A stretch of DNA of 32,000 bases. Source: Haloquadratum walsbyi C23 (lineage in GTDB: Archaea; Halobacteriota; Halobacteria; Halobacteriales; Haloferacaceae). The position numbers were made by a program, and so were the translations under genes. The notes under the pieces were generated by a model. It did no database searches, had not been told where the DNA came from, and saw nothing but the letters and a program-made list of their open reading frames with translations. Of this stretch, positions 831 to 31,951 are shown in pieces. Position 1 is the stretch's first letter. Each line of letters opens with the position of its first letter. The stretch spans positions 68,259-100,258 of the forward strand of contig NC_017457.1 of assembly GCF_000237865.1 (NCBI RefSeq). Direction: 5' to 3'.

Positions 831-831
831 T

Positions 832-12308: not shown

Positions 12309-12362
12309 CTGATACTCAGTGCATATGTTTATATAAATCAATTTATATTATGTGATTGTCAT

Positions 12363-15226: not shown

Positions 15227-15582
15227 TCAGATCAATTAGTTTTTTGAAATTGTGATTTTTGCATTCAGTACACCGTCCGTATTTAATCGTCGAGGACAAA
15301 CTCCGTGCTGTTTTCTTCACTCCTCGCTCACTACTTTTTCGTGATAACATACGCTTGACAGACGGGAGGTGTGGAGAACAGGATAATTAAAAAATTTCAC
15401 ATACTGACGTTTGAATAACAGTGAGACCACGATAGTCTTTAAGAGGTTTTATTCAACATATCATATGTCTTATGAGAGTAGAAAAATCATATAATAAATG
15501 ACTCACATACGGAGCACACTACGATTCGAATTGAGTCTGATACCACAGCCACAACCGATGATACAGTCATATCAATACTGTC

Positions 15583-16115: not shown

Positions 16116-16633
16116 GTACAGTACGATTGTATCAAGTAAAGATGGACGAGTGCGAAGAAGGGTATGTCACTGAATCGTATCTCTCTCTACTCGGTGCGTG
16201 TGTCCATAGTGACGGTCAGTGGTGAACGGATGACCTCTATGGAATATTGTCCGTTAGAGTGTATATATAATCTCTCGATGGTTATTGATGCATTCACAAG
16301 GAATACCGTGGTTTGATACTAATACTCAATGTTGGCAACAGATGTTGATATGAATATCAGTACCTCAGACTTTCTGGAAGAGAGGCAGTGATTTCATCGA
16401 TTGGCTCTGGTGTGACAGCACGACCTTACGTAACAATTCGTCTCTCATTTTATCCGATAATAGACAAGATGGTGACATACCAACCTCTCAGAATCTTGAG
16501 CCGTCACCTCTCTTTGTCACGTGGAAGAGTATTTACTGATTGTAGTTTTATTTGTTACTCGACAGGTGCTAGTGGGAAAGCGCTCTCCATCCATGTCGTA
16601 CGAGATGCTGATAGAACGTAGTCTCAGATAATG

Positions 16634-17839
16634 TTAGTCTGCGTGTTGACCGATTATTTGTCCCACTCGACTTTCGGATTCAAGCACGTCGGCGATGATA
16701 TCCTCATCAGCATTGAATTCGTATTTATAATAGCTCCCACCGTTCGATCCTTTATTCACCTCCATCAGATTGATGAATCCCTTCAGCGATAGCTGATTCA
16801 GACGCCGGTGTAATGTCCGTGTCGATACGGTATCACGTCCGATCTGCTGTGCGATTGTCTTGTACTGGTCGTGGATCACTTTTCGTCTGACTGGTGTTCG
16901 TCCTTGTCGTGCCAGCGACAGTACTGTGTAGAGCACGACGTGACTTTGTGTTGGTAACGCTTCGAGTTCGTCTTTAACGACGCCACTCTGGACTTGGTGG
17001 TATGCCTTTGTGACATGAGAGTCTGTAATCGTCGAATCATTGTTGTCTCGTGCGATGAAACCCGCATTCGAGAGGATATTGATCGCTTCACGAGCGCTTC
17101 CGGTGCGCTGTGCGACTTTTGCAGCTGTCAATGGGATTACTTCTTCGGACAGTGCGCCGTCCAAGAACGCTTCATCAGCACGTTGTGAGAGGATTTCCTG
17201 TAACTGATCAGCATCATACGGCTTGAAGTGGATCTCGTGTTCACACAGCGTTGATTGGACACGGGCTGACAGTTCATCACGGAACTTGAAATTATTCGAA
17301 ATGCCGATCAGTCCGATTTTTGTCTCGGTAATGTTCCCGTTCGTATGTGCACGTGGGATTTGATACAACAGTTCATCATCAGATCTGAAACTATCAATTT
17401 CATCAAGCACGAACAGGACATGTGTGGCGTCGGTATCCTCAATATGTTCCCACAGTTTTCGATGTACTGTGGAACGGGGATAGCCTGTCGTGTGAATCTC
17501 CTGATTTCGGTCACGAAAATGATTCACGAGGTGACACGCAACTTGATAACTCGTTGCATCTTTACAGTTCTGCCAGACAACCTCGACGGAGACGTTGTCG
17601 AATTCAACCTGGTCCTCGAGCAACTCATCAAGTATCATTTCTGTTGCGAGTGTTTTCCCAACGCCGGTATCACCGTAGACGAAGATGTTTCGGGGACTGG
17701 CTCCATTAGCCACGCTCTGAAGCACTTCCACGTATGTAGACATCTCATCTTCTCGAGCAATGAGTGTGTCAGGCGTATATCCATCAGTAAGGACCTCCTC
17801 GTTATCGAACACGGCGTCAGTCTGTGTGAACCGTCCCAT
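16634..17839 (-). CDS. orc1: Orc1/Cdc6 replication initiator (AAA+ plus C-terminal winged helix)
   Basis: 401 aa. Walker A VYGDTGVGKT (17651-17674). Walker B FVLDEID. Sensor region GLIGISNN. C-terminal wHTH (LSLARQGRTPVRRKVIHDQYKTIAQQIGRDTVSTRTLHRRLNQLSLKGFI). Confidence 0.95.
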   Translation of the reverse strand: MGRFTQTDAVFDNEEVLTDGYTPDTLIAREDEMSTYVEVLQSVANGASPRNIFVYGDTGVGKTLATEMILDELLEDQVEFDNVSVEVVWQNCKDATSYQVACHLVNHFRDRNQEIHTTGYPRSTVHRKLWEHIEDTDATHVLFVLDEIDSFRSDDELLYQIPRAHTNGNITETKIGLIGISNNFKFRDELSARVQSTLCEHEIHFKPYDADQLQEILSQRADEAFLDGALSEEVIPLTAAKVAQRTGSAREAINILSNAGFIARDNNDSTITDSHVTKAYHQVQSGVVKDELEALPTQSHVVLYTVLSLARQGRTPVRRKVIHDQYKTIAQQIGRDTVSTRTLHRRLNQLSLKGFINLMEVNKGSNGGSYYKYEFNADEDIIADVLESESRVGQIIGQHAD

Positions 17840-18986: not shown

Positions 18987-21860
18987 ATGAGTTCACAAAC
19001 ATCTCCAAGTATCCAGCCAGGTGCCGTAGTCAAGAATCGAAACCGACTATGGAGAGTTGATTCCGTTGATGGAGACGTTGTCACAGCGACTCCCATAGAC
19101 GGGAGCACTGCCGACAAGCATCGGTTTTATATTCCGGTCGAGGATATCAGAGAGGGCAGTCTGAATCCGCCAGATTCTGAGAAACTCGGGAATCCTGAGT
19201 TTCAGCGGCTACTAAATCGGTCATATCGGCTTTCGATGCTACACGGGACAGCTCCACTCGTAAGCCTCCAACGGTCACGGGTTATCCCAACCGAGTACCA
19301 GCTTACTCCAGTTGTAATGTCTTTGGATATGCCCCGTGTCCGAATGCTGCTGGCTGACGACGTCGGTCTAGGGAAAACCATTGAAGCAGGCCTCATCACC
19401 AGCGAACTGATGGCCCGCAACAAAGCGGATCGTATTCTCATAATTACGCCTGCGAATCTCCGAGACCAGTGGCGTGAAGCGTTTACCTACTTCTTCCACA
19501 TTGATGCGGATATTATCAGCCGCCGCCATCGAAAGGCGATGGAAAAGGAAATCCCACCAGGAACTAGTCCGTGGGAGCATTTTTCGAAACTCATTGTCAG
19601 TATCGACTACGCCAAACAAAATAGCGTTCGACACGAGATTCTGGATCAAGAGTGGGATCTCGTCATTATTGATGAGGCACACCAAGCGGCGAAACCGCAT
19701 GAATCCGGGGCAAACGAAACCGTCGATATGCAACGCTGGGACTTTGCGACCGATATCACCGACCACGCTGAACACTGTCTCCTCCTGACGGCTACGCCCC
19801 ACAACGGCTACACGGATTCGTTTGCGAGCTTGATTCGGATGCTTGACGTCGACGCAGTATCTGGTCCTCGACATGACCCTACCGTTCACCGAGATATCGC
19901 CCGAAAGCATGTTGTCCAACGACGGCGGGACGATGTCAAGCGATGGTTCTCTGACAGCGACGGTCAAAGTCCCTTCCCAAAGCGAGATCAAGACGAAGTA
20001 CGGGTTACGCCGACAGCATACGAGGAAGAGACATACGATGCCGTCCGAGAGTATGGAGAGCTGTTGATGTCCTCCGCACAACGGTCAAGCTCCAAGAGCC
20101 AGACGCTGGCTCGTTGGTCAGTCATCCACTTCCTGAAGCGAGCATTAAGTAGCCCCGAAGCGCTCCGCCGATCGATAAAAAACCGTCAGGAAAAGCTCGA
20201 AGGTCGGCTGGATGAACTTGACGAGGAGGATACCCAGACTGTAATCGAAGAGACAGCAGGAGTCTCCGAGTCGATGGCTCAGGCGAATGCACTTGACGAC
20301 GATCCTGGTGAAGAGTACAGTGAAGAGGAGGTCGGAGAACGGGTCGAGCGGGTCGTCACGGGTGATAAAGCCGCTATCGAACAGGAACTGGAGGTTCTCG
20401 AAGATGTTGCAGAAAAGGCGGAGCGGGTCACCAAAACCCGTGATGCAAAGTTACAGCGGCTTCTCGACGAAACTCTACCCCAGCGGTTCCAATACCCTCG
20501 TGTCATCATATTTACAAAGTACGTGGATACGCTGGAGTATCTCGAAGAGCAGATCAAGGATTCGCAGGGTGATGAGACCGAAGTCTTCACTCTCCACGGG
20601 TCTCTAAATGAGGCACAACGGAAGGAGCGGTTCAAAGAGTTTGAAGAATCTACACGGGGCGTTCTCATCGCCACTGACGTCATCAGCGAAGGGATGAACC
20701 TCCAACACGCCGCAAACCAAATTATTCACTACGAGCTGCCGTGGAACCCGAACAGATTGGAACAGCGGAACGGTCGAATCGACCGATATGGGCAGGAGAA
20801 CGACGAGGTCGTCATCCGGACGATGGTCGTCGAGGATCAGATGGACGTGGCTATTCTCGAAAAACTCGTCCAGAAAGCGAACAACATCAGGCAGGAGTAC
20901 GGGTTCTCACCACCGTACTTCGGCGACGACGAAGGGATCCTCGAACTGCTCAAAGACGAGGGAATCGACGCTGGCGTTCCACAGGCAACACTAGAAGAGT
21001 TCGGCGGCTCCGCACCAGCGGAGCGTGAGAGTGCGAGTGTCTTTGACGACCAGACACTTGACCGAATTAAATCCGAATCGTTCTACGGGCATACTGAAGT
21101 CGGCCTACAGGAGGTTCAAAAGCGTCAAGAAGAGACCCACCAGCGAATCGGCGGGCAGGGCACGTTAGAGCAGTTCGTCAAGAGTGGTCTGAACCTGTTC
21201 AATTGCTCGTACGAGATGAACGTCCAAGGGCACCTCAACATCGAGGTTACTGCTGATCGACTTCAATCACCGGACATCAAACGTGAGTACGAGGACGTGA
21301 CGTTCGATCCCAACGAGGCGTCCCAGTCATCGGATGCGGAGATGCTTGACATCGCCCATCCGCTCGTACAACGGCTCATCGAAGCCGTCAAAGAGACAGC
21401 GTTGACCGATGAGAACCGCTACGGGCGGACAGCAATACGGGGAACCGATGAGGTGAGGGAGCCGACAGCAGTGTATACAGCACTGGTTCGATACGTGGCA
21501 GACACCCAGCCCGATCCGACGATTATGGAGGAGTTGGTACAGGTCGGGTTGCCAATCTACGGGGACAAGCCACTTGAGCAAGATACCGTTGAGGCTTTAG
21601 AGGAGAGTGAAGCCAAACCGGTTCAGCGCACATCGATGGAGAAGGAAGACGAACTCAGAGCGGCACTCGGACACGGAGCGTTCGAACAGACGCTACAACG
21701 GCGAGCAGAACAGCGGCGGGACAAGATTGTCGAACAGCGGACCGAGATGCGAGCGGAGCTTGAGAAATCCGGAAGTGGAAGCTGGCTGTCCGGGATTGAT
21801 GACGTCGAGATTGCGAGCAAAGATCTGCTGACTGTCACCATCTATTATGGGAGCAACTAA
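18987..21860 (+). CDS. SNF2/RapA-family helicase (DrmD-like)
   Basis: 957 aa. Motif I LADDVGLGKT (19356-19379). Motif II IIDEAHQ (DEAH at 19671-19682). Motif III LLLTATPHNG. C-terminal lobe FTLHGSL..., ATDVISEGMNLQ, and motif VI WNPNRLEQRNGRIDRYGQ. Small N-terminal beta-rich domain (GAVVKNRNRLWRVDSVDGDVVTATPIDG). Confidence 0.92.
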   Translation: MSSQTSPSIQPGAVVKNRNRLWRVDSVDGDVVTATPIDGSTADKHRFYIPVEDIREGSLNPPDSEKLGNPEFQRLLNRSYRLSMLHGTAPLVSLQRSRVIPTEYQLTPVVMSLDMPRVRMLLADDVGLGKTIEAGLITSELMARNKADRILIITPANLRDQWREAFTYFFHIDADIISRRHRKAMEKEIPPGTSPWEHFSKLIVSIDYAKQNSVRHEILDQEWDLVIIDEAHQAAKPHESGANETVDMQRWDFATDITDHAEHCLLLTATPHNGYTDSFASLIRMLDVDAVSGPRHDPTVHRDIARKHVVQRRRDDVKRWFSDSDGQSPFPKRDQDEVRVTPTAYEEETYDAVREYGELLMSSAQRSSSKSQTLARWSVIHFLKRALSSPEALRRSIKNRQEKLEGRLDELDEEDTQTVIEETAGVSESMAQANALDDDPGEEYSEEEVGERVERVVTGDKAAIEQELEVLEDVAEKAERVTKTRDAKLQRLLDETLPQRFQYPRVIIFTKYVDTLEYLEEQIKDSQGDETEVFTLHGSLNEAQRKERFKEFEESTRGVLIATDVISEGMNLQHAANQIIHYELPWNPNRLEQRNGRIDRYGQENDEVVIRTMVVEDQMDVAILEKLVQKANNIRQEYGFSPPYFGDDEGILELLKDEGIDAGVPQATLEEFGGSAPAERESASVFDDQTLDRIKSESFYGHTEVGLQEVQKRQEETHQRIGGQGTLEQFVKSGLNLFNCSYEMNVQGHLNIEVTADRLQSPDIKREYEDVTFDPNEASQSSDAEMLDIAHPLVQRLIEAVKETALTDENRYGRTAIRGTDEVREPTAVYTALVRYVADTQPDPTIMEELVQVGLPIYGDKPLEQDTVEALEESEAKPVQRTSMEKEDELRAALGHGAFEQTLQRRAEQRRDKIVEQRTEMRAELEKSGSGSWLSGIDDVEIASKDLLTVTIYYGSN

Positions 21861-21862: not shown

Positions 21863-24800
21863 ATGAGTATCGATACACCCTCTACCGACGCTGAAATCGA
21901 ATCGAGTTCCGATACGCCACGAACCGGATCAACGACATTCATTAATACGAGCGGCGGTCTCCTCACCGAGGAACTGGTTGGCAAAGTCCGTCAACGTCAG
22001 TGCGGAGAGTCTGCCGTCCGACCGGAGACCTTTGCGTTACCGAACACGGAGCCGCCCGAAGAGGCGGACATCGAAGCAGAGATCGGGAATACGTGGAACA
22101 CGCTTCGGGAGCGATGGGACGAGCTGACTATGGACGAGACACTATTCCATATGGACGTCTCGGACGCTCGCAACAAGTGGATTCTCAAGCTATTCCGAAA
22201 CCTTGGCTTCGAGCCGGTCTTCCAGCGTGAGAATCTCGAAGCGGGCGGCATCGAGGCGAACCTCTCTCATAAGGGATGGCCGGACGGCGAGATCGAAAAC
22301 TATGGTGAACTGGAGGGGCGGACGGCTCCAATCATTCATACCGTTAAGCCGGAACAGAAGCTGGATCAAAAACCCGAAAATGCTCCTCGTGGAAGAAAAA
22401 GTCCACATGACACGCTCCAGGAGTTCCTAAATGCCAGCGACGAACATGACTGGGCTGTCGTAACAAACGGGCTGACGCTCCGAGTTCTTCGGGATTTCTA
22501 TCACACGTACACCCGTGGATACGTGGAGTTCGATCTGGAGAATATATTTACGACCCGGAATTACGGGGACTTCCGGGGACTCTACCGGCTCTGCCACGCT
22601 ACACGGTTCATCGATCCGATCGTAGCCGATGAAGAGGAGGATGATATTGAGACTCCTCTGGAGCAGCTCTACCAGGTCGCTCTGTCTACTGGGGTCAAGG
22701 TTGGTCAAGATCTCCAATCCAACGTCGTAAGCGCCATCGAGACGCTGGGGACCGGGCTACTCAACCAGGAGATTCGGGAGTTCCTCAAAGAAGGTGGAGA
22801 AGAGGAAGCCAAAGAGTACTATCAGGAGGTCCTTCTCTTGGTATATCGCCTGCTTTTCCTGATGTATGCAGAGCAGCGGGGGATGATGGCGTCACGTGAT
22901 AGCCTGTACACCAACGAGTATAGCATCACGAACCTCCGTAGAAAAGCCGAAAACCGTCGAAGCGGGAGTGACCGAAATACTGATCTTTGGCACGGCTTAC
23001 AGTCCACGTTCCGTCTCGTCGAGAAGGGTGACGACGAACTCGGCGTCCCTTGTTACAATGGAATGCTCTTCGACTCGAACCGGTTTGAATGGGTGTCCGA
23101 AGCCGAGTGTTTCAACGATGATCTCTTGGATGCAATTGAGGATCTCACCCTCATTGAGCACGAGGGCACTCGCCAACGAATCTCGTACGCCGACCTCGGT
23201 GTTGAGGAGATTGGGTCTGTCTACGAGAGTCTGCTCGAGTTTACACCGAGGCTTGCATCTGAAGTAATTGAATTGGAAGACAGAACGATTACTCGTGGTA
23301 AGTTCTATCTCGACGACCGGGGGACCGAGCGAAAAGAGACCGGGAGCTACTATACTGATCCGGGATTAGTTCAAGAACTTATTCAGAGCTCGCTGGAACC
23401 CGTCGTTGAAGATCGTATGGAAAACGCTGTCACGACTCCGGAACAGGAAGAAGCCCTCCTCGACATCTCTGTCTGCGATCCAGCAAGCGGAAGTGGTGCG
23501 TTCCTGATCGCCGCCAACAATTTCTTAGCACAGCGACTCGCTCGCATTCGATCTGACAGTGACTATCCGCCTGGAGACAAGATTCGTGAGGCACGCAGAG
23601 ATGTCCTCCAGCACTGTATCTATGCAGTCGACCTCAATCCAATGGCCGTCGAATTGGCAAAGGTCAGTCTCTGGATAAACTCTGCTGTAGAAGACAAGCC
23701 GCTAAACTTTCTTGATCACCGTATCAAACAAGGAAATTCGCTTGTTGGGACAAATAGAGATCTAATTAATCGAGGCGTTCCTGCTGATGCCTATGAGACA
23801 TCGAAGGGTCGTGACTGGCACATTGGCAATGAAATAAGGAAACGTGTCCGTCAAGAAAATAGCGAACTGAATGATAATAACCAACAGATTCGGCTTGATA
23901 CTCAGTGGGATGACCGTCAGGAAGATTATGTAAGTCTTGCAGAACAGTTGGATCAATTAGAGGAATCTGAGGTCAAGAATATAAATAAGAAACAAAAAAT
24001 CTACAATGATCTCCGTGAGAGTGAAAATTTCCAGCGGGAGAAACTTGCCCATGACGTATGGACGGCAGCATTTTATTGGCCGCTCGATGGTTCTGCAGAA
24101 GAATATCCAACGCCGAATATAATCGAACAGATTCGTCGAAATCCGCCGACACCATCCAACAGTTCTCTTTCTGAACTAACTGGGTTACAGGCTGTGCGTG
24201 AACGTGCAACTCAACTCGCAGAGAAGGAGTCGTTCTTCCATTGGAAGCTCGAATTTCCAGAGGTATATGCAGCTGGTGGATTTGATTGTATCATCGGCAA
24301 CCCTCCCTGGGAGATCGTAGAATTTGAAGAAAGAGAATTCTTTGCCGTCCAGGCACCTCATATCGCAGATGCAAGCACTCAGAGCGAGAGGAGAGAACTC
24401 ATTTCAGAATTGGAAAAAACGGATCCGGAGCTCTATTCTGAGTACCAGTCTGCAGTGAACCGTATGGAAAGTCGTGTCCGGTTCCTGAAAGAGAGTGGGC
24501 GATACGAACTTACAGGGACTGGCCATGTCAATACATACTCAACTTTTACTGAACACGCTTTATCGAACATCAACAACTATGGACGGTGTGGAATCATCGT
24601 CCCACAGGGTATTGCAACAGATTCAAACACTCAAGAATTCTTCCAGCATATCGTAGAAAAGCGTCGGCTTATCTCCCTCTTAGGCTTCGAAAACCGAAGT
24701 CAATTATTCCCAGATGTAGACGGCCGGTTTAATTTTTGTCTACTGACTCTGAGCGGTCGAAAAGAGACGCAAGAAAAGTTTGAGCTTGCATTTTATTTGA

Positions 24801-25915
24801 CCGAAATTGATCAATTACAAGACGAACAACGTCGGTTCAATTTGTCCAAACGAGACATCAAAACGATTAATCCTAACACAAAGACTTGCCCAACATTCCA
24901 AAACAGAGAAGATGCCAATCTTACCCTCAATATCCACAGAAGAACAGATATATTAAAAAAAGAAGCGGATGGATCCGGAAATCAGTGGGATATTTCGTTA
25001 GAGAGGATGTTCCACATGTCAAATGACTCTGGACTTTTTGAAACCTCCTCTACTCTTCAACAAGACGGTTTTGAATTGTCTGGGAATATTTTCGTTAAAG
25101 ATGATTTGAAGTATTTGCCGGTGTATGAGGCAAAATATATTCATCAGCATGATCACAGATTTGCCACTTATGAGGGGATAGAAAACGCTCCAGATGAAAA
25201 ACCACGAAAGCTATCGCCGGAAAAAAAAGATGTGGAAAATAAGCGAGTTATCCCTCGTTATTGGATAAAAGAAGACGAATACAAATCTCAAGAATACGAA
25301 GATTGGCATCTCTTGCTGAGAGCTATTACAAACGCCACAAATGAACGAACAGTAATTGCTTCACTTGCCCCTTCAACACCAACTGTCAACAGCGTCAACC
25401 ATGTCTTGGGAGTTTCCGCACCGGATGGACTAATTCTATCTTCATGCTTGAATTCTTATGTTCTGGACTTTGTTGCCCGTCAGAAAGTTGGAGGTACTAA
25501 CCTGAGCCAGTTCATAATAAAGCAACTACCAGTACCTACACCAGAGAAAGCCAATCAAATACAACTAGATAATAACCCAATACGGAAGGCAATCTTAGAA
25601 CGTGCGGAAAAGCTAATATACACAGGATCTGATCTTTCTTCTATCGGATCTGAGCTAAATAACGACTCTGATCCTTACCAATTTACTGAGCCAGATGGGA
25701 AGAAGCGAGAAGAGGTCAGGTATGAATTAGAAGCGTTAATTTGCCATCTCTATGGGATTCATTCGGAGGAATTCAAACCTCTATTTGACTCTTTTAAGCA
25801 GATCAAACAACGTGATCAGCAAAAGTATGGCTACTATCGCACCCGTGATGAAATTAAACGCAGATTTGATGACTTAGCACCCAGAATCACGTATGAATCA
25901 AAGTCGGAACAATAG
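21863..25915 (+). CDS. Large gamma-class N6-adenine DNA methyltransferase (Eco57I/Type IIG-like, DrmMI/PglX-like architecture)
   Basis: 1350 aa. The ATG is 2 nt after the SNF2 stop. AdoMet motif I VCDPASGSGAFL (23477-23506). Catalytic motif IV IIGNPPWE (NPPW at 24299-24310). N-terminal HsdR_N-like fold (..APIIHTVKPEQ..HDWAVVTNGLTLRVLRD). The long C-terminal half is presumably a target-recognition region. Confidence 0.92.
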   Translation: MSIDTPSTDAEIESSSDTPRTGSTTFINTSGGLLTEELVGKVRQRQCGESAVRPETFALPNTEPPEEADIEAEIGNTWNTLRERWDELTMDETLFHMDVSDARNKWILKLFRNLGFEPVFQRENLEAGGIEANLSHKGWPDGEIENYGELEGRTAPIIHTVKPEQKLDQKPENAPRGRKSPHDTLQEFLNASDEHDWAVVTNGLTLRVLRDFYHTYTRGYVEFDLENIFTTRNYGDFRGLYRLCHATRFIDPIVADEEEDDIETPLEQLYQVALSTGVKVGQDLQSNVVSAIETLGTGLLNQEIREFLKEGGEEEAKEYYQEVLLLVYRLLFLMYAEQRGMMASRDSLYTNEYSITNLRRKAENRRSGSDRNTDLWHGLQSTFRLVEKGDDELGVPCYNGMLFDSNRFEWVSEAECFNDDLLDAIEDLTLIEHEGTRQRISYADLGVEEIGSVYESLLEFTPRLASEVIELEDRTITRGKFYLDDRGTERKETGSYYTDPGLVQELIQSSLEPVVEDRMENAVTTPEQEEALLDISVCDPASGSGAFLIAANNFLAQRLARIRSDSDYPPGDKIREARRDVLQHCIYAVDLNPMAVELAKVSLWINSAVEDKPLNFLDHRIKQGNSLVGTNRDLINRGVPADAYETSKGRDWHIGNEIRKRVRQENSELNDNNQQIRLDTQWDDRQEDYVSLAEQLDQLEESEVKNINKKQKIYNDLRESENFQREKLAHDVWTAAFYWPLDGSAEEYPTPNIIEQIRRNPPTPSNSSLSELTGLQAVRERATQLAEKESFFHWKLEFPEVYAAGGFDCIIGNPPWEIVEFEEREFFAVQAPHIADASTQSERRELISELEKTDPELYSEYQSAVNRMESRVRFLKESGRYELTGTGHVNTYSTFTEHALSNINNYGRCGIIVPQGIATDSNTQEFFQHIVEKRRLISLLGFENRSQLFPDVDGRFNFCLLTLSGRKETQEKFELAFYLTEIDQLQDEQRRFNLSKRDIKTINPNTKTCPTFQNREDANLTLNIHRRTDILKKEADGSGNQWDISLERMFHMSNDSGLFETSSTLQQDGFELSGNIFVKDDLKYLPVYEAKYIHQHDHRFATYEGIENAPDEKPRKLSPEKKDVENKRVIPRYWIKEDEYKSQEYEDWHLLLRAITNATNERTVIASLAPSTPTVNSVNHVLGVSAPDGLILSSCLNSYVLDFVARQKVGGTNLSQFIIKQLPVPTPEKANQIQLDNNPIRKAILERAEKLIYTGSDLSSIGSELNNDSDPYQFTEPDGKKREEVRYELEALICHLYGIHSEEFKPLFDSFKQIKQRDQQKYGYYRTRDEIKRRFDDLAPRITYESKSEQ

Positions 25916-25947
25916 GTTCATGTCTGAATTAATTTATTATGCTCGTC

Positions 25948-25954
25948 TTTTTTT
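25948..25954 (+). terminator. T7 tract, a candidate archaeal intrinsic terminator after the methylase gene
   Basis: The ctcgtctttttttcg run of 7 T lies about 33 nt downstream of the stop at 25915. Archaeal termination commonly uses oligo-T tracts. Not tested. Confidence 0.3.
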
Positions 25955-26233
25955 CGTGAACAGAATATGTCAAAATAAATGAGTCAGACTGGTTGGATAA
26001 AAATCCAAATCTGACTGAATACCGGATTAGGTAGGAAAATCACCCCTGGAATAGGGACTCAATTTCGTTGAAAAATTCTGTAAATACGGTTTTGATTATA
26101 TTTGAATCATTTAATCCAGTATGTAGTATTTTTCCGAAGAAAATATAGTAAACGTTCAGAATCAGGGTTCGGAGAGTAATAGAGACAAGGCATAACCTTC
26201 GGATCATAACTGGCTTTCTGGTCATCGAAATAA

Positions 26234-26578
26234 TTATTCAATTGATATACAGTCCCTATCGAACTTATCTAAGTACACCAGACTTCTGAATTCAAATTCA
26301 AAATCGGCAACATTGTCAATAGTAATGAAACTATTTATGCTCTTGATTAACTCGTCATGGGTTAACCAGAGTTCTTGTTCACCGCTCGCTCCAGCGATGT
26401 CGGACTTTCCTGATCCGAAAAGTAACACTGTCGGACTATCTGGAGTGAATTCTAATTTGAACGTATGATGGTATTCTGGTTGATATTGTTGCTCGTGAGC
26501 GTCTAGATCTCCATGTAGTACAGCTAAATCTAACTCCTAATTAATATCGCCCCTACCAACCGGACTAACGAGCTCCAT
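26234..26578 (-). pseudogene. Antisense ORF with an in-frame TAG (codon 14), divergent from the helicase gene; decayed gene of unknown function
   Basis: The ATG at 26578 gives MELVSPVGRGDIN, then a TAG at 26537-26539. The same frame continues ELDLAVLHGDLDAHEQQYQPEYHHTFKLEFTPDSPTVLLFGSGKSD...CISIE, reaching the track ORF 26234..26428. The product is acidic and protein-like, but no domain is recognised. Confidence 0.3.
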
Positions 26579-26644
26579 GTCCTACCTATCATACTCAGTT
26601 CTCTTATGAAAAAACGTTTACAGCTTCCCATTAATAAGCAGAAT

Positions 26645-29600
26645 ATGTCATCTCGTCTCAATCCCTTTGACGCCCTCGATAACGTCCAATCCTCCTATCG
26701 ATCCTACGTCGAGACGTTTCAAAACGTCGACGATGAGACGATCAACGCTTGGATTGAGAACCGCATCGAGACGGGAAAGGTACTGTGGAAAGAACCGTTT
26801 GTTCAATTGAATCAACGCTTCAAGTACGGCGACACCCTGGAAGAGTTCGTTACGGACAATAAGCTCCACGAGAGTATTCTGGATGTATTCACCGGTGTCG
26901 GCGGCGATCCCATTGAGCCGTACAAACATCAGACCGAGGCAATTCAGTCTATCCAAGCAGGAAACAATACCATCGTTTCCACAGGGACAGGATCGGGGAA
27001 GAGCTTCGCCTTTGGGATTCCGATCGTCAGTCACTGTCTCGAAGCTAAAGAGCGAGGCGAGGACGGGATCAAAGCGGTCATTATCTACCCGATGAACGCT
27101 TTGGCGAACTCCCAGTACGAGGACTTCGCAGAGCGACTTGACGGGACAGGTCTCCGGCTGGGACTTTACACGGGTGACACACCGCACAACCCTGACGAGG
27201 CACCAGAGTTCCTCCGGCAGTTCGGTCGTGAAGAGGCGTTTGACTCCGAGATCGTCTCTCGGGAAGAGATGCAGAACGACCCGCCGGACATCCTGATGAC
27301 GAACTACGTCATGCTTGACCTCATCCTTACCCGACATGAAGACAAGAAGCTCTTCCCAGAGATGCACGAGGGAGCCTTACAGCATCTGGTACTAGACGAG
27401 ATCCACACCTACACCGGTCATCAGGGAGCCGACGTCGCCGCACTGGTCCGCCGGCTGAAGCAGCACACCGACGCTGGAAAGGAACTCGTCTGCGTCGGTA
27501 CTTCTGCGACGGTTCAGAGCGATGAGGGGATCAACGCCAACGACGAGATAGCCGAATTCACTGGGAAGATCTTTGGTGAGGAGGTCGACGTCAACAACGT
27601 CGTTCGGGAGTTCCATTACCCATTACCCCTCTCTGACGACGAACCGCTTCCTGACGACATCGAAGTCACCGAAGAGGACATCGCAACCTTCGACGGGAGT
27701 CTCGAAGCCGCACAAGACCTCACCGAGAAACTCCTCGACCGGGATCTGATGCCAGCTGAGACAACCGATGCGTCAGCACTCGGGAATGCGCTGGAGAATC
27801 ACCCAACGATCAAGTTCCTTGATGAAGAGCTTAGCTCCCAGAGCCAGCAGATCTTCGCCGGTGAGGATGACAAAAGCGATGACGGGAAGGATCTCGTCAG
27901 TAGCTATCAGGAACAGTACCGACCCGATGCATCTCGGTACGACATCGAGCAGGAACTACAGGCAGCCCTGCTAATGGGGACGGTTGGGACGACCGAGATA
28001 CAGGGCGAGGAACAGCCGATCTTCATCCCGAAACTCCACACCTTCTTCAGTCAGGGAAGTGGTCTCGTCTCCTGTCTCACCGAGGAGTCCCTCGATGACG
28101 ACGAACCACACCTGAGTGACGCCGGCGACATCGAGTGTCGCACGTGCGCACAAGAACACGACCGTTCTCGGACTGCCTACCCGCTCTCGTTCTGTCGGGG
28201 ATGCGGTCAGGAGTACTACACCACGGTTGTCGATCAAGAGAACACCGTCACACAAGGTGCGTTGAGTACCTTCGTAGACACGGAAGAGGACGAAGAGGAG
28301 GCGTACCTAATGCGGGGCGATTGGGATCGAGAAACGGCTCCACTCCCCGATGAGTGGCTAAATGAGAATGGGCAGCTTCGAGATACCTACATCGAGGCTG
28401 AACCCCGACCGGCTATTTACTGCCCCGATTGCGACCAACTCACTCCTGGACGAGTAGAACAGGGGCAGCTCGAATGTGGATGCTTCGCTGCGCAGGGGCT
28501 TGAGGTGATGCGGGTCAACCAGCCGTTCCTGTTCTGTCCGAACTGTGGCGTCCACTACACTCGCCGGGTCAAGAACGAGTTCAACAAGCTGTTTACCTTC
28601 GGGACTGTCGGCCGCTCGACAGCGACGGACATTCTCATCGGAAACACGATGCGGAACCTCCCCGATGACCAGCAGAAGACCATCGCCTTCTCTGACAACC
28701 GACAGGATACTGCATTGCAGGCGGCTCACCTCAATAACCTCTACCAGCGGATTCGATTCCGACGCTCGCTGTACCATACCCTTGTAGAGGGCGACGATGT
28801 AAGTCTCACGACGCTCGGAAACGATATCTTCGACCTCCTTGATGACAAGGAAGCCCTTCCGCCAGCCATAGATACAGGGATGTTCGGACCGTCGGCTGAG
28901 GATCGTCAGAACTACAGCGACTATCTGCTGTTCAACGTCATTCTCGAACTCGGTCGTGAACAGCAACGCACCCAGCAGAGTCTCAAAGACGTCGGACTGG
29001 TCAATGTCGAGTACGAGAACCTCGATAAGCTGGCGGATGTAGACGATGTTTGGGACTCGATCCCCGTACTTTCGAATGCAGATCCGACGGTGCGAGAGGA
29101 GTATGTTCACGGCTTCTTGGACATCTTCCGCCGGAGCATTGCAATAGACCACGATAGCACCACGAACTTCGCCGACTTCAAGCGAAACGTCATCAACCAG
29201 CTCGACGAAGAGGTTCATTTCCACGGGCAGGAGTTCTTCAATTTCCCAGTCGGGTACAGTGATACGGCAAGCACTAACGGAAGGCACCGGGTTCGCCGAC
29301 TTACACATCCTCGCTCTCGACACGTCCGTTGGACATCCCGTGCGTTAGACGTCGACACCGATACTGCGAAGTCAATTATTAACAGCGTCGTTGAGCTCAT
29401 CAGCGACGACGAAATACTCAAGCTGCTGACGCAGGAGTCGCTGAAGTACACTGGGAAAGTATATATGTTGAATCACAGTGCTGTTCGAGTCACGCATGCC
29501 AATCCCGAGGACGTACGGGTCTGTCCAAAATGTGGAACACCGACGACTCGGAATGAACTTGATGTCTGTCTGAATTACAGCTGTGATTCGATTATACCCG

Positions 29601-31951
29601 AGGAAACAAATCTTGAGTCGTCCTACTTCTATGACCTCTATACCGAGTCGCTTGATGACGCCGTTGATATCATCGCCGGCGAACACAGCGGTCAGGTTGA
29701 GAACGAAAGACGGAAACAGTTAGAGTCAGATTTCAGGGAGGGCGAAAAGGTGAATACTATTGTCTCAACGCCGACGATGGAACTCGGAATCGACATTGGT
29801 GATCTCTCGAATGTCTATATGCGGAACGTCCCACCAGACCCGAGTAACTACGCTCAGCGTTCCGGGCGGGCTGGACGGCAAAATCAGCCGTCGCTGGTCA
29901 CGACATTCTGTGGTCGTGGGTTCGGGCGTGGTTCTCACGACCAGTACTTCTACCAACATCCAGAACGGATCATCGCAGGAGAAATCAGCCCACCTACGTT
30001 CCTACTCAACAACCAGGATCTGATTGAGTCGCATATCAACGCCCTCGTTCTCGAACAGATTGAGCTCAAGTTCCAGAGCAAGCCCCGACAGATGCTGGTC
30101 ATCGAGGAAGGAAGCGACTACGAGATTATGCCCGATTATCGGGTAGACCTGGAGAATGCCGTCAAGAACAACCGACAGAAGATCATTCAGGCGGTGAGAC
30201 AAGCGTTTGTCCGTGAGCGTGAACAGGATACCGTCGGGGAGTGGTTCACCGATGGCTTCATCGAGCGCCAAGTGGACGACTTTGTCGAGAATCTCGATGA
30301 AGCCTTCGACCCGTGGCGTCGTGAGTACACCCGCTTGAGCCGTGAATTGCGGCGATTGAATCAACTCCTCGCCACCGAAGGAGGGTCATATCAAGATAGG
30401 ATCGAGCGCAACGCCATCGAAGACCGGCTTGAGGATATGCGTTCAGGGAACAAACGCTTCTATACTTATCAGTACCTCCGCTCACAAGGGTTTCTGCCGA
30501 ATTACGGATTCCCAAGACAGAGCACGACGCTAACATTCACTTCCCGAGAGGACGATATTCAGCGAGATCAGACACGGGCTATCAGCGAATTCGCTCCTGG
30601 AAATCACGTTTACTACGCCGGAGAGCGGTTTGCTGTGCGGTATGCCCGTCCTCGGACGAAAGACTCAGAGCCAGTTACCCGACATCTCCGTGTCTGCCCG
30701 GAGTGCGAGACCATCCTGATGGGAGAAGATGCTCAGGAGTCCGCAGCATGCCCCTCGTGTGAAACCTCGTTCGATGGAACTCATCCAAATCCGAATGCGA
30801 TGGAGCTCCCGAACCAACACGCTCAGCCAGAGGAGAATATCACCAGCGATGAGGAGGAGCGTCGTCGGCGGGGATACGAGATTAATAGCTATTACGAACG
30901 ATCTGATCCTCGACAATTTAAATTAGAGGGTAACGGGATCGAGGCTAGAGTAACATATGAAGCGAGTGCGAATATCGTTTTGATTAATAGTGGGCTCCGA
31001 GATTCTGATGAAGATGATCTCGACGGGTTTGCACTTTGTATGGAGTGTAACAAATGGCTGAACAGCAGGGATCAGATCGAGAGTCACGTTGACGAGGACG
31101 ATCCGGATTGCTATGCTAATGCATCAGAAGAAGCAGTCAAACATGAAATCGAGCTGTTCTCTGAAGGGCAACACGACACAGTGACGCTGACCACACCACT
31201 CCCCGAGGGGCTTGAACCTGAGCAAGCTGATGAATTTTATCGGACTCTTAAAGAAACCATCTATCAGGGTATTCTAGTTGCGTTTGACCTGGATGAGGAG
31301 GAAATTGACACCTTTGTCAAACCAGCAATGGGAGAGTATGGACAGGTCAGTATTGTGATCTACGAAACTAGTGAGGGAGGAGCAGGCGTGCTTCGCTCAC
31401 TAATGGATGAGGCACGGTTTAAAAAAGCAGTTCGGGAAGCACAGACTGTTGTTCACAAGGATACTGATGATGATGGTTGCGAGCGTGTGTGCTATGATTG
31501 TCTTTTGTCTTTCTACAACCAGCCAGAGCATGAGTTCCTCGATAGAACACTTGTTGACTCATGGTTAGATAATCTCGAAAATGCGACTCTGACTGAACTA
31601 AGCGAAACAAACAGGACTGAGATGACTGAAGAGAGATTTAATGAGCTTCTCAAAGCCTGTGAATCCAGTTTTGAGCGTGAGGTCCTTCACACTATTCGAG
31701 ATCAAGAGTTTGAATTTCCAGACCAGGCTCAAAAAACCGTCTACGACGGCGGTGAGCCAGTAGCAAAGCCCGACTTCTTTTACAAACGAACTGGGCGCTC
31801 TGTGGCTGTATTCGTCGACGGTCCTGCTCATCAGAAGGATTACGTCATACAGGATGACGAGCATAAACGAAGACGGCTGAAGAAGATGGGATATCGAGTT
31901 GTGGCAGTTACTGATATTGGGCAAGTCGAGGAGATGTGGGAAAACATCTAA
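26645..31951 (+). CDS. Giant SF2 DEAD/DEAH helicase with multiple Zn-ribbon insertions, a DUF1998-type C-terminal module and a terminal Vsr/DUF559-like nuclease fold (DrmA-DrmB-like fusion, COG1205-like)
   Basis: Motif I VSTGTGSGKSFAF (26978-27004). Motif II LVLDEIHTY (DEIH at 27395-27406). Motif III GTSAT. IAFSDNRQDTA. Motif V STPTMELGIDIGDL. Motif VI QRSGRAGR. CxxC pairs are present (CRTC..CRGC; CPDC; CPNC; CPKC). The ATG at 26645 (MSSRLNPFD) is preferred over 26606. Confidence 0.92.
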   Translation: MSSRLNPFDALDNVQSSYRSYVETFQNVDDETINAWIENRIETGKVLWKEPFVQLNQRFKYGDTLEEFVTDNKLHESILDVFTGVGGDPIEPYKHQTEAIQSIQAGNNTIVSTGTGSGKSFAFGIPIVSHCLEAKERGEDGIKAVIIYPMNALANSQYEDFAERLDGTGLRLGLYTGDTPHNPDEAPEFLRQFGREEAFDSEIVSREEMQNDPPDILMTNYVMLDLILTRHEDKKLFPEMHEGALQHLVLDEIHTYTGHQGADVAALVRRLKQHTDAGKELVCVGTSATVQSDEGINANDEIAEFTGKIFGEEVDVNNVVREFHYPLPLSDDEPLPDDIEVTEEDIATFDGSLEAAQDLTEKLLDRDLMPAETTDASALGNALENHPTIKFLDEELSSQSQQIFAGEDDKSDDGKDLVSSYQEQYRPDASRYDIEQELQAALLMGTVGTTEIQGEEQPIFIPKLHTFFSQGSGLVSCLTEESLDDDEPHLSDAGDIECRTCAQEHDRSRTAYPLSFCRGCGQEYYTTVVDQENTVTQGALSTFVDTEEDEEEAYLMRGDWDRETAPLPDEWLNENGQLRDTYIEAEPRPAIYCPDCDQLTPGRVEQGQLECGCFAAQGLEVMRVNQPFLFCPNCGVHYTRRVKNEFNKLFTFGTVGRSTATDILIGNTMRNLPDDQQKTIAFSDNRQDTALQAAHLNNLYQRIRFRRSLYHTLVEGDDVSLTTLGNDIFDLLDDKEALPPAIDTGMFGPSAEDRQNYSDYLLFNVILELGREQQRTQQSLKDVGLVNVEYENLDKLADVDDVWDSIPVLSNADPTVREEYVHGFLDIFRRSIAIDHDSTTNFADFKRNVINQLDEEVHFHGQEFFNFPVGYSDTASTNGRHRVRRLTHPRSRHVRWTSRALDVDTDTAKSIINSVVELISDDEILKLLTQESLKYTGKVYMLNHSAVRVTHANPEDVRVCPKCGTPTTRNELDVCLNYSCDSIIPEETNLESSYFYDLYTESLDDAVDIIAGEHSGQVENERRKQLESDFREGEKVNTIVSTPTMELGIDIGDLSNVYMRNVPPDPSNYAQRSGRAGRQNQPSLVTTFCGRGFGRGSHDQYFYQHPERIIAGEISPPTFLLNNQDLIESHINALVLEQIELKFQSKPRQMLVIEEGSDYEIMPDYRVDLENAVKNNRQKIIQAVRQAFVREREQDTVGEWFTDGFIERQVDDFVENLDEAFDPWRREYTRLSRELRRLNQLLATEGGSYQDRIERNAIEDRLEDMRSGNKRFYTYQYLRSQGFLPNYGFPRQSTTLTFTSREDDIQRDQTRAISEFAPGNHVYYAGERFAVRYARPRTKDSEPVTRHLRVCPECETILMGEDAQESAACPSCETSFDGTHPNPNAMELPNQHAQPEENITSDEEERRRRGYEINSYYERSDPRQFKLEGNGIEARVTYEASANIVLINSGLRDSDEDDLDGFALCMECNKWLNSRDQIESHVDEDDPDCYANASEEAVKHEIELFSEGQHDTVTLTTPLPEGLEPEQADEFYRTLKETIYQGILVAFDLDEEEIDTFVKPAMGEYGQVSIVIYETSEGGAGVLRSLMDEARFKKAVREAQTVVHKDTDDDGCERVCYDCLLSFYNQPEHEFLDRTLVDSWLDNLENATLTELSETNRTEMTEERFNELLKACESSFEREVLHTIRDQEFEFPDQAQKTVYDGGEPVAKPDFFYKRTGRSVAVFVDGPAHQKDYVIQDDEHKRRRLKKMGYRVVAVTDIGQVEEMWENI
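30477..31531 (+). other. DUF1998-like (MrfA/DrmB-type Zn-binding) region within the helicase ORF
   Basis: YQYLRSQGFLPNYGFP, then CPECETIL...CPSCE (from 30695), CMECNKW, and the terminal cluster CERVCYDCLLSFYNQPEH (31478-31531). This matches the C..C..CL..Y.N...H signature I associate with DUF1998. Confidence 0.65.
31673..31948 (+). other. C-terminal Vsr/DUF559-like PD-(D/E)xK-fold domain of the helicase ORF
   Basis: EREVLHTIRDQEFEFPDQ...AKPDFFYKRTGRSVAVFVDGPAHQKDYVIQDDEHKRRRLKKMGYRVVAV follows the E..l...f..Q...PDF....l.vE.DG..H....D..R...L...G..V pattern. The Glu before DG is replaced (VFVDG). Confidence 0.5.

Follow-up and report, generated by a model that had tools for sequence, protein, structure and literature searches.

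The closest described counterpart of the locus analysed here is the ARMADA type I system, whose ArmC helicases were described by Bell et al. (2025; bioRxiv 10.1101/2025.09.15.676423; PMC12458937) with WP_108720193.1 as representative, and whose reported gene order in archaea is armA-armB-armC. ARMADA type II, which is experimentally validated in E. coli (ArmABCD) and absent from archaea, encodes ArmA, ArmB and ArmC proteins homologous to the trio found here; its defence is non-abortive and depends on ATPase motifs in both ArmA and ArmC as well as on the NPPW motif of ArmB. Type II differs in encoding ArmD, a RelE-GajB-like helicase, and in an ArmC that often carries extra inactive EEP and Vsr domains. 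In the literature that we searched, we found no report of an experiment on any type I system and none of a Vsr-domain mutant of any ArmC, type II included. The shared architecture is standard for the defence branch of YprA helicases and has been described for both ARMADA and Druantia. Cryo-EM structures of Druantia DruE show an MrfA-like core with three additions around it: a five-helix domain, a Cap domain and a large zinc module that contains two zinc motifs. The cryo-EM study reports that the enzyme unwinds DNA from single-stranded regions. By contrast with ArmC, type III DruE ends in a PLD-like rather than a Vsr-type domain, is partnered by DruH and comes without a methyltransferase or SNF2 partner. 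MrfA/YprA of B. subtilis (6znp/6zns) has the same RecA1, RecA2, OB, connector and DUF1998 zinc domains as ArmC and lacks the peripheral domains, the nuclease tail and the methyltransferase context.

We analysed a window of 32,000 nucleotides from the haloarchaeon Haloquadratum walsbyi C23 (NC_017457.1, positions 68,259 to 100,258), whose last base lies 49 bp past the stop codon of a gene for a giant helicase (Table 1). The open reading frame is real, and every motif that an initial annotation had listed for it lies where that annotation placed it. Residues are counted here from the ATG at 26606 (numbers based on M14 are lower by 13); because the homologue consensus starts MNPF, the true start is likely M14, the ATG also chosen by the initial annotation. 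Across its full length, the protein is 62% identical to SDR05900.1 of Natronobacterium texcoconense (99% of length) and 46% identical to MCS3612547.1 of Salinibacter ruber, both entered as 'ARMADA Type I helicase' in Table S1 of Bell et al. (PMC12458937); placement in the type I clade rests on identity to these two catalogued members, as a proxy for a tree. Directly 5′ of the helicase gene, on the same strand, lie genes for an SNF2-type helicase with the motifs GLGKT (127), DEAH (229) and QRNGRIDR (593) and for a methyltransferase with the motifs DPASGSG (539) and NPPW (813). These neighbours, ArmA and ArmB, identify the system as ARMADA, and in 40 related genome loci whose flanks suffice for the comparison ArmB is upstream in 35 and both proteins in 26. 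The initial annotation omitted this operon context.

Table 1 Features of the armA-armB-armC locus (window coordinates; residue numbers from the ATG at 26606)
Feature	Coordinates	Strand	Description and basis
armA	18987..21860	+	SNF2/RapA-like (BrxHII/DrmD-like) helicase, 957 aa
armB	21863..25915	+	PglX/DrmMI-like N6-adenine methyltransferase, 1350 aa
armB-armC spacer	25916..26644	.	729 bp, AT-rich, GC 0.37, without convincing gene
armC	26606..31951	+	YprA-family helicase with predicted nuclease tail; 1781 aa from ATG 26606, 1768 aa from ATG 26645
RecA1 core	26924..27517	+	aa 107-304; Pfam DEAD 2e-24; Walker A, DEIH, motif III SAT
Helical domain after RecA1	27671..27979	+	aa 356-458; AF2 model
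Beta-rich, probably zinc-binding module	27989..28555	+	aa 462-650; 11 strands in AF2, ligand conservation
IAFSDNRQDTA	28682..28714	+	aa 693-703; first conserved RecA2 element, common to DruE
Alpha/beta insertion in RecA2	28715..29497	+	aa 704-964; AF2, pLDDT mostly >85
Putative C4 zinc ribbon CPKC...CLNYSC	29522..29584	+	aa 973-993; Zn_Ribbon_1 and DZR sub-threshold
RecA2 remainder	29666..29995	+	aa 1021-1130; Pfam Helicase_C 2.6e-13; aligns to 9tu7_Y and 9wae_A
Region from RecA2 to OB fold	29996..30475	+	aa 1131-1290; literature description
Putative C4 zinc module CPEC...CPSC in OB/CON canopy	30695..30760	+	aa 1364-1385; ribbon/RING matches sub-threshold
Cys/His cluster	31037..31111	+	C1478, C1481, H1494, C1502; conservation
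MZB/DUF1998 domain, zinc-binding by family	31253..31504	+	aa 1550-1633; C1625, C1629, C1632; Pfam MZB
Predicted Vsr/DUF559-like PD-(D/E)xK nuclease domain	31631..31951	+	aa 1676-1781

Together these data make it very probable that the giant helicase is ArmC of an ARMADA type I system, with the architecture described for that family and a mechanism to be read from its relatives. The trio and its order are those of archaeal type I loci, the domains follow one another as in type I ArmC (including the OB-CON-DUF1998 unit with an extra zinc module and the C-terminal Vsr-type domain), and nothing essential differs; the local oddities are the 729-bp spacer, the divergent last ~180 residues of ArmC and a swapped C-terminal half of ArmB. 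The density of inserted domains and Cys clusters had been put forward as unusual for a helicase of this kind, but it is the rule in the defence branch, and since Bell et al. (2025, PMC12458937) had already set it out for the family, this gene is an ordinary new member. Correctly assigned, the genes add one more complete ARMADA type I locus, in a haloarchaeal defence island adjoining a type I restriction-modification system, and leave knowledge of the family itself unchanged.

Standard pipelines call this protein a 'DEAD/DEAH box helicase' or assign it wrongly to Druantia or DISARM, and neither the NCBIfam 20.0 nor the PADLOC 2.0 scan returned an ArmC model. PADLOC v2 would name the helicase DruE of a Druantia system, since its top matches are DruE3 (4.5e-124) and DruE1 (1.2e-121). 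The top PDB sequence matches, 9tu7_Y (4.9e-53) and 9wae_A (7.6e-34), share the domain layout and belong to structures that we take to be DruE. We nevertheless regard a Druantia assignment as highly improbable: the best-scoring stretches span only the C-terminal 40–45% of the protein, no DruA-D, DruH, DruM, DruF or DruG was found among the six open reading frames scanned with PADLOC, where the neighbours are ArmA and ArmB instead, and the full-length orthologues in the catalogue are entered under ARMADA type I. PADLOC-DB 2.0.0 (2023) is also older than ARMADA, which Bell et al. (PMC12458937) detected with a custom database and ARMADA models. In the same study no protein is closer to DruE than ArmC, and this explains the cross-matches.

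The upstream genes likewise evoke DISARM. ArmA matches the PADLOC models DrmD (1.5e-133) and BrxHII (4.5e-93), ArmB matches DrmMI (9.4e-97) and type IIG models with weak NCBIfam PglX matches, and a helicase joined to DUF1998 recalls the combination of DrmA and DrmB, so that the locus could be read as class 1 DISARM with a DrmA-DrmB fusion. This too has very little probability. The DrmA models cover only ~100 RecA2 residues (E ~1e-14), helicase and DUF1998 reside in one protein where DrmA and DrmB would be separate genes, ArmA scores 470 bits against a cut-off of 610 for the NCBIfam DISARM_DrmD equivalog, and no PLD gene (DrmC) was seen either in the window or in the sequence that follows close homologues. 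Moreover, the DISARM helicases sit on another branch and carry an N-terminal EVE domain and a trigger loop (Bell et al., PMC12458937). Least credible of all is a housekeeping DNA-repair helicase of the MrfA/YprA type, a plain COG1205 protein, to which a sequence match to 6znp (1e-22) and the Pfam MZB match might point. ArmC exceeds MrfA by ~1000 aa, is encoded in a defence island in one operon with a methyltransferase and an SNF2 helicase, and has near-identical copies in other haloarchaeal genera (91–92% identity in Halobacterium, Halorussus and Natronoarchaeum, 87% in Halorientalis), a pattern that indicates horizontal transfer.

The helicase core of ArmC is that of a YprA-family SF2 enzyme with a DUF1998/MZB domain, the Pfam DEAD, Helicase_C and MZB (6.9e-08) matches all passing their cut-offs. 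RecA1 carries GTGSGKS (127), DEIH (264) and GTSAT (298), and RecA2 carries motif V as TMELGID (1057) and motif VI as QRSGRAGR (1084). Two large insertions said to split this core are borne out: 390 aa separate motif III from IAFSDNRQDTA, an element that is nearly invariant in the homologue alignment and aligns with residues 780–865 of 9wae_A, and a further 317 aa lead to the start of the Helicase_C match at 1021. In an AF2 model of aa 300–1020 (pLDDT 84), the parts follow in the order helical, beta-rich, alpha/beta and ribbon, which in the model matches the published architecture of ArmC and DruE. What had been described as an acidic linker is modelled as a confident helical domain of about seven helices (block pLDDT ~90 save for the loop 419–429), with a single acidic loop at ~419–429. 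Its counterpart is 'BrxA-like' in Bell et al. (PMC12458937), or the five-helix domain of the literature; it gave no Pfam or Foldseek match. Within the following beta-rich stretch (aa 462–639 in the model) Cys or His is conserved at 11 positions and there are four CxxC pairs, in keeping with the two or more conserved CxxC motifs expected of the beta-barrel zinc module that type I ArmC has where RecA2 starts; its Pfam zinc-ribbon matches are sub-threshold only. The insertion in RecA2 consists of long helices and then a winged-helix-like (helix-helix-strand-strand) unit; it was named 'MarR-like' by Bell et al. (PMC12458937) and 'Cap' in the DruE cryo-EM study, whose authors dispute the MarR-like label. 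A Foldseek search of the aa 300–1020 model against the PDB returned nothing significant (best E = 0.56), and neither 9tu7 nor 9wae, both found by sequence search, so the BrxA-like and MarR-like labels are not reproduced here. Between RecA2 and the OB fold, where Bell et al. (PMC12458937) place an HTH with a coiled-coil finger, there is no informative Pfam match. Searched segment by segment, ArmC gave sub-threshold zinc-ribbon matches and MZB (1.8e-09 on its segment alone, aligning to the DruE chain 9tu7_Y), and no other Pfam match.

The Cys clusters that had been noted along this architecture are real and conserved. ArmC contains nine CxxC pairs, whereas 20,000 shuffles gave 0.46 on average and at most 5 (Poisson P = 1.5e-9). 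The clusters comprise C511/C514/C530/C533, C606/C609/C624/C626, C644/C647 plus C490, C973/C976/C988/C993, C1364/C1367/C1382/C1385, C1478/C1481/C1502 and C1625/C1629/C1632. In 119 full-length homologues of median 45% identity, and again in 51 species-level genomes, the clustered cysteines are invariant or nearly so, and the objection that the Cys pairs might not be conserved therefore falls away. Each ribbon cysteine from C973 to C993 is present in 119 of 119 homologues and in 47–51 of the 51 genomes, those of the C1364–C1385 module in 115–119 and 50–51, and C1478, C1481 and C1502 in all 119, these three and H1494 being kept in 51 of 51. The only common replacement of a cysteine is histidine (C609 in 20 and C626 in 44 of the 119). 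These clusters probably bind metal. From spacing and conservation, we infer the residue groups that would share a zinc: in the beta-rich module, candidate sites would be formed by C511/C514/C530/C533, by C606/C609/C624/C626 and by C490/H502/C644/C647, and C1478/C1481/H1494/C1502 may pair with the C1625–C1632 cluster. Strong purifying selection acts on all candidate metal ligands and, as shown below, on all candidate catalytic residues.

The C-terminal tail, previously related to Vsr, DUF559 and PD-(D/E)xK folds, falls within the Vsr/DUF559 branch of PD-(D/E)xK nucleases. Pfam MTES_1575 matches 25 of 28 tails, DUF559 21 and Vsr one, all below cut-off; the tail of this protein scores 14.2 bits for DUF559 (cut-off 20.6) and 21.2 for MTES_1575 (cut-off 38.2). 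A tail profile searched against the PDB matched the Vsr-like homing endonuclease I-Bth0305I (3r3p, E = 0.0027). The AF2 model (pLDDT 87) has an alpha-beta-beta-beta-alpha-beta core, and although its Foldseek matches are weak (best E = 0.026), every match listed is a PD-(D/E)xK nuclease; Vsr, 3hrl and 3r3p are absent from the best 50. As in E. coli Vsr (1cw0/1vsr), I-Bth0305I, DUF559 and MTES_1575, the PDF motif lies on a strand of the fold, and the tail shares with its Vsr-type relatives a downstream His and Asp and a closing L...G(Y/W)RV strand. Unlike Vsr, the tail has no zinc site (C66, H71, C73, C117) and no insert of ~20 residues ahead of D97, and Vsr H64 is replaced by Asp, as in DUF559. 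The tail appears to work like the Vsr/DUF559 clade, yet it is not a formal member of the Pfam PF03852 and PF04480 models. With the tail profile as query, 1028 representatives were matched at E up to 0.001. Of the 150 proteins listed, almost all carry the match at or near the C terminus; ~20 of the 150 are roughly 1700 aa long, and the many short ones are probably gene fragments.

The tail had been called possibly inactive for want of the canonical Glu. Its signature comprises PDF (1722–1724), VFVDG (1735–1739), H1742, D1751, K1754, R1755 and L1758, with F1736 at the DUF559 Glu position. This Phe is found family-wide, in 116 of 119 homologues and 46 of 51 species-level genomes, and a hydrophobic residue occupies the same position in the active E. 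coli Vsr (F62 in IFTHG). An hhalign alignment with E. coli Vsr (E = 0.0016, probability 16%) pairs PDF with PD51F, VFVDG with IFTHG and D1751 with D97, and sets H1742 opposite H70, across a gap and one position off H69; our own motif mapping, in a region that hhalign leaves unaligned, suggests that E1690 corresponds to Vsr E25. Candidate catalytic residues are thus, by alignment and motif mapping, E1690, D1723, D1738, H1742 and D1751. E1690, D1723, G1739, H1742 and D1751 are present in 119 of 119 homologues and 51 of 51 species-level genomes, and D1738 is invariant or nearly so in both sets; the residues lining up with Vsr D51, H64, H69 and D97, and a Glu on the N-terminal helix of the tail, are all invariant or nearly so. 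Together with the zinc ligands, these candidates are ready targets for mutagenesis.

A tail that is catalytically dead and acts in DNA binding or sensing, as the initial annotation proposed, or in interaction is unlikely, though it has points in its favour. Besides the Phe at the Glu position and the sub-threshold family matches, it could draw on the model, where the active-site loop 1738–1750 around DG..H is the lowest-confidence part of the tail, and on divergence, as haloarchaeal loci are 92–94% identical in the helicase core and 65–75% in the last ~180 residues, the fastest-diverging part of ArmC in close relatives. Bell et al. (PMC12458937), whose prediction for the ArmC Vsr domain is 'active', themselves put 'active?' in Table S2 and predict dead Vsr-like tails for DruE of Druantia I and II. 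However, the retention of precisely the five acidic and His residues at Vsr-equivalent positions, across 119 and 51 sequences ~45% identical overall, is not what one would expect of a dead domain. Every candidate catalytic residue is kept in the divergent last ~180 residues, and mean column identity is higher in the tail (55%) than in the whole-protein alignment (46%). Because the Phe is family-wide and as in Vsr, and because the candidate catalytic residues are kept, an active nuclease appears more likely than a dead domain.

By analogy with MrfA, DruE and ARMADA type II, ArmB would mark host DNA, and ArmA and ArmC would act on invader DNA lacking the mark. ArmC may translocate on single-stranded DNA while the DUF1998 canopy clamps the strand, and the zinc modules would tie the peripheral domains to one another and contribute to the binding of DNA or partner proteins. 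The Vsr-type domain would then cut DNA, giving direct, non-abortive protection, with metal binding completed by a backbone carbonyl and not by a Glu side chain, as in a Vsr-like site.

The C-terminal half of ArmB is hypervariable, with low GC and mosaic identity among loci. Co-variation of the ArmC tail with this half, which could have pointed to a shared specificity, was ruled out by comparing loci L004, L005 and L006: between L004 and L006 the ArmB half is 36–45% identical and the ArmC tail 94%, and between L004 and L005 the values are 66–72% and 100%. The tail may be a variant that joins a Vsr-like Phe at the Glu position to a DUF559-like Asp in place of Vsr H64, and phage inhibitors could drive its exchange. 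The armB-armC junction is an insertion hotspot across related loci and holds TATA-binding-protein paralogues in four haloarchaeal species, such as Halobacterium yunchengense; recalling the TBP component of the TOTE and TALON conflict systems, these could be working parts of archaeal ARMADA and not passengers. That the tail is a distinct catalytic variant or exchangeable cassette and that the junction is an accessory docking site with functional TBP paralogues is a doubtful proposition at present. Downstream of armC, the closest loci encode DUF192 and ribosomal proteins (L001) or HNH and Mrr-like proteins (L004), and no ArmD-like or UvrD-like gene was found there.

In the closest relatives armB and armC overlap, whereas here the spacer separates them, so that their co-expression is not assured. 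The spacer sequence matched nothing within the 82 loci compared. It is flanked by a 12-nt direct repeat, the second copy of which covers the armC ATG; by a rough estimate of ours chance would give ~0.04 such repeats per 1.1 kb, and the repeat could be a target-site duplication.

The giant helicase is encoded by a single long forward-strand ORF (26606..31951, 1,781 aa, residues counted from 26606); the host is a haloarchaeon, and Asp and Glu make up 19% of the protein. The homologue consensus (MNPF...) starts at the equivalent of M14, which makes the ATG at 26645 the probable true start, as initially annotated. From its sequence we assign this protein as ArmC, another member of ARMADA, an architecture already published in 2025. 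Bell et al. (bioRxiv, September 2025; PMC12458937) defined ARMADA by ArmA (a BrxHII-like helicase), ArmB (a PglX-like methyltransferase) and ArmC (a YprA-like helicase closest to DruE), with type I present in archaea in the order armA-armB-armC. ArmC is 62% identical over 99% coverage to SDR05900.1 of Natronobacterium texcoconense and 46% identical, at full length, to MCS3612547.1 of Salinibacter ruber, both listed as 'ARMADA Type I helicase' in Table S1 of the same study (PMC12458937), and its nearest copies (87–92% identity) occur in Halobacterium, Halorussus, Natronoarchaeum and Halorientalis. With the 2023 release of the PADLOC library, the upstream ArmA matches DrmD (1.5e-133) and BrxHII (4.5e-93), and ArmB matches DrmMI (9.4e-97) and, weakly, PglX. 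Among 40 related loci with enough upstream flank, ArmB lies upstream on the same strand in 35 and ArmA and ArmB together in 26. No ArmD-like gene was found downstream of armC in the closest loci; the window ends 49 bp past the armC stop codon. To the published architecture, residue-level conservation data and local peculiarities are modest additions.

PADLOC labels ArmC as DruE (4.5e-124). We rejected a Druantia identity because no Dru partner genes lie beside ArmC, the leading DruE models have their highest-scoring matches in only its C-terminal 40–45%, and its orthologues have been listed under ARMADA. DISARM class 1 was rejected on the fusion of helicase and DUF1998 in ArmC, DrmA models that cover only ~100 aa of it, an NCBIfam DrmD equivalog score for ArmA that falls short of its cut-off (470 versus 610 bits), and the lack of any visible PLD gene. 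A housekeeping MrfA role was rejected on size, island context and horizontal spread.

Features of the window and of ArmC (nucleotide positions in the window; aa, ArmC residues)
Feature	Position	Strand	Description
HsdS fragment	171-830		type I restriction-modification module
HsdS	1097-2452		type I restriction-modification module
HsdR	2445-5417		type I restriction-modification module
YgjP-like metallopeptidase	5401-6132		in type I restriction-modification module
TBP paralogue	6127-6681	-	
382-aa protein	6865-8013	-	HSDR_N/MmeI_N-like N-terminal domains
Orc1/Cdc6 paralogue	16634-17839	-	
ArmA	18987..21860	+	SNF2/RapA-like helicase, 957 aa; GLGKT, DEAH, QRNGRIDR
ArmB	21863..25915	+	N6-adenine methyltransferase, 1350 aa; DPASGSG, NPPW
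GTGSGKS	aa 127		helicase motif
DEIH	aa 264		helicase motif
GTSAT	aa 298		motif III
Helical domain	aa 356-458		AF2, block pLDDT ~90; one disordered acidic loop near 419-429
Beta-rich module	aa 462-639		AF2; contains CRTC/CRGC, CPDC/CGC and C490/CPNC clusters
IAFSDNRQDTA	aa 693		first RecA2 element, 693-703
Long helices, then alpha/beta unit	aa 699-964		AF2; winged-helix-like helix-helix-strand-strand pattern
C4 ribbon	aa 973-993		AF2; rest of RecA2 after it
TMELGID	aa 1057		helicase motif
QRSGRAGR	aa 1084		helicase motif
Cys clusters	aa 1364-1385, 1478-1502		in OB/connector canopy
MZB (DUF1998)	aa 1550-1633		Pfam match

All motifs named in the initial annotation are found in the ORF, the gap between motif III and IAFSDNRQDTA is 390 aa as described, and another 317 aa separate this element from the Pfam Helicase_C match. 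An AlphaFold2 (AF2) model of aa 300–1020 (42-sequence alignment, mean pLDDT 84) confirmed the layout of the insertions, with the BrxA and MarR labels resting on published descriptions. What had been called an acidic linker is modelled as the folded helical domain, with the acidic part reduced to its single loop; this domain is probably the counterpart of the 'BrxA-like' domain (Bell et al.; PMC12458937) and of the 'five-helix domain' in the DruE cryo-EM structure. The beta-rich module corresponds to the 'beta-barrel ZBM' (ZBM_L in DruE), and the unit at 699–964 probably to the 'MarR-like' domain (Bell et al.; PMC12458937) or the 'Cap' of the DruE cryo-EM study, in which no known structure proved homologous to the Cap. 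Foldseek with the 300–1020 model gave no significant match in the PDB, and Pfam detected nothing in the insertions but sub-threshold zinc ribbons. An inserted zinc module is reported in the canopy of type I ArmC (Bell et al.; PMC12458937), and the same study assigns an HTH and a coiled coil to the segment matching aa 1131–1290. The density of zinc modules that made the architecture seem unusual is indeed atypical for MrfA/YprA, but is the published hallmark of the family's defence branch.

Nine CxxC pairs occur in ArmC, whereas 20,000 shuffled sequences average 0.46 and never exceed 5 (P ~1.5e-9), and seven clusters take 25 of its 29 Cys. A search over 5.8 billion proteins (E up to 1e-20) returned >7,900 relatives; of the best 120 listed, 118 are near-full-length proteins (1650–1950 aa) with 41–89% identity. 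In a 119-sequence alignment with 45% median identity, the clustered Cys show little or no variation; the sole frequent replacements, C609 to His (20/119) and C626 to His (44/119), keep a metal ligand. Another 51 armC genes, taken independently from species-representative genomes (35–92% identity), show the same conservation, and in this set H502 and H1494 are also invariant. H502 probably completes a C490/C644/C647 site and H1494 probably a C1478/C1481/C1502 site, the residues being assigned to one ion from their spacing. The Cys pairs are conserved in both sets, and the predicted zinc-binding role of the clusters therefore stands.

The C-terminal tail carries the expected signature (PDF, VFVDG, H1742, D1751, K1754, R1755 and L1758), and its suspected relationship to Vsr/DUF559/PD-(D/E)xK folds is borne out by sub-threshold profile hits and weak structural matches. 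Pfam gave no model above threshold on the tail; single scans of 28 diverse tails recovered MTES_1575 in 25, DUF559 in 21 and Vsr in one. A tail profile matched one solved structure, I-Bth0305I (3r3p, E = 0.0027), a homing endonuclease of Vsr-like type. In the AF2 model (pLDDT 87), aa 1676–1781 follow the order alpha-beta-beta-beta-alpha-beta, as in PD-(D/E)xK nucleases, and the model's Foldseek matches, all weak (E at least 0.026), are all nucleases of this superfamily: R2 endonuclease domain, Bax1, XisH, TnsA, Hjc, VRR-NUC and cap-snatching endonucleases.

The tail had been suspected of inactivity for want of the canonical Glu. Phe occupies this DUF559 position in ArmC (F1736; 116/119 and 46/51 sequences) and likewise in E. 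coli Vsr (F62). A profile-to-sequence alignment with Vsr (sequence verified against 1cw0; E = 0.0016, probability only 16%) pairs PDF with P50-D51-F52, VFVDG with I61-F62-T63-H64-G65, D1751 with D97 and L..G-Y-R-V with L104..G108-W-R-V; H1742 falls opposite H70, one residue off H69, across a gap, and E1690 is outside the span, which begins at tail residue 45. The Vsr centre is formed by D51, H64, H69 and D97 with E25, and metal binding is completed there by a backbone carbonyl (T63). D1723, D1738, H1742, D1751 and E1690 of ArmC were mapped as candidate counterparts; D1738 is kept in 117/119 and 49/51 sequences and the other four in 119/119 and 51/51. Conservation of the tail is no lower than that of ArmC as a whole (mean column identity 55% versus 46%). 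With Phe also in Vsr and the candidate residues conserved, we take the missing Glu to be what is usual at a Vsr-type site rather than a sign of decay. We consider the tail much likelier to be an active nuclease than a dead module, catalytic death being a live minority option of rather low probability. Bell et al. (PMC12458937) predict the same for the ArmC Vsr domain, which they mark 'active?'; the ARMADA literature we found reports no mutant of this domain and no experimental test of type I.

Over the last ~180 aa of ArmC (window ~31400–31951), comprising a linker and the Vsr-like tail, GC falls to 0.46. Identity across linker and tail is 65–75% in relatives with 92–94% helicase-core identity, every candidate catalytic residue is kept in the divergent alleles, and no co-variation links the tail to the ArmB C-terminal half. 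This pattern suggests allele exchange by recombination.

A mechanism for the H. walsbyi locus may be drawn by analogy from MrfA, DruE cryo-EM work and ARMADA type II genetics. ArmB would methylate host DNA, with its variable C-terminal half determining the motif, and unmodified invader DNA would be engaged by ArmA and ArmC. ArmC would translocate on single-stranded DNA beneath its OB-CON-DUF1998 canopy, the peripheral zinc modules might steady its large shell and touch DNA or partner proteins, and the Vsr-type tail would nick or cut DNA. In the DruE work, unwinding starts from single-stranded regions; in ARMADA type II no gene is dispensable, nor are the Walker motifs of ArmA and ArmC or the NPPW motif of ArmB, and protection is non-abortive.

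Across phyla, the junction between armB and armC is a hotspot for insertions. Of the 26 loci that have armA as well as armB upstream, 14 show a gap of <120 bp and 12 a gap of 0.4–2.7 kb; in L001 and L002, the closest metagenomic loci, armB and armC overlap. In four haloarchaeal species (Salinigranum marinum, L003; Halobacterium yunchengense, L004/L007; Halorussus marinus, L005; and that of locus L014), the junction spans 1.0–1.4 kb and holds one or two TATA-binding-protein (TBP) paralogues, in either orientation; Bell et al. (PMC12458937) mention TBP for TALON/TOTE systems only. The L004 spacer TBP shares 46% identity with the TBP paralogue encoded in the window, which, however, lies ~12 kb upstream of armA. 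Inserts were also seen in loci L006, L009, L010, L019, L034, L041, L042, L044 and L049, among them PLD-like (L010), Fic (L042), NB-ARC-TPR (L041) and RecQ-HEAT helicase (L049) genes and several unknowns.

In the window, the spacer (25916–26644, 729 bp, GC 0.37) contains no convincing gene. An exact 12-nt direct repeat, CAGAATATGTCA, occurs at 25961–25972 and 26639–26650, 678 bp apart, its second copy covering what is probably the start codon of armC. An inserted segment could have left this repeat as a target-site duplication, or it may be fortuitous (rough expectation ~0.04 such repeats in 1.1 kb). A start-less reverse-strand frame of ~100 codons (26234–26536) with a Walker-A-like string, TVLLFGSGKSDIAG, may be the remnant of an ATPase gene.

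ArmB looks like a mosaic in which the target-recognition part is swapped between otherwise near-identical systems: its first 300 aa are 89–91% identical to close loci and its last ~650 aa only 32–55%, and GC falls along the gene from 0.54 to 0.40 (variable part about 23900–25915). Given the type I restriction-modification module at its left end (171–6132), the window is a defence island. The 6127–17839 stretch has the content typical of haloarchaeal integrated elements or regions derived from plasmids, and several ORFs at 9727–14246, where GC is low (0.41–0.46), have no Pfam match. H. yunchengense (L004) and H. marinus (L005) have armABC in common, followed by the same downstream ORF layout (14.4–22.1 kb), which in L004, the locus scanned, includes wHTH-HNH and Mrr-like endonucleases; H. 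yunchengense carries two identical locus copies on different scaffolds (L004, L007). The island thus appears mobile between genera. In S. marinum (L003, CP100461.1), the armB region is split into several ORFs around a DDE transposase, with two TBP genes ahead of an intact armC, and this ARMADA locus looks decayed.
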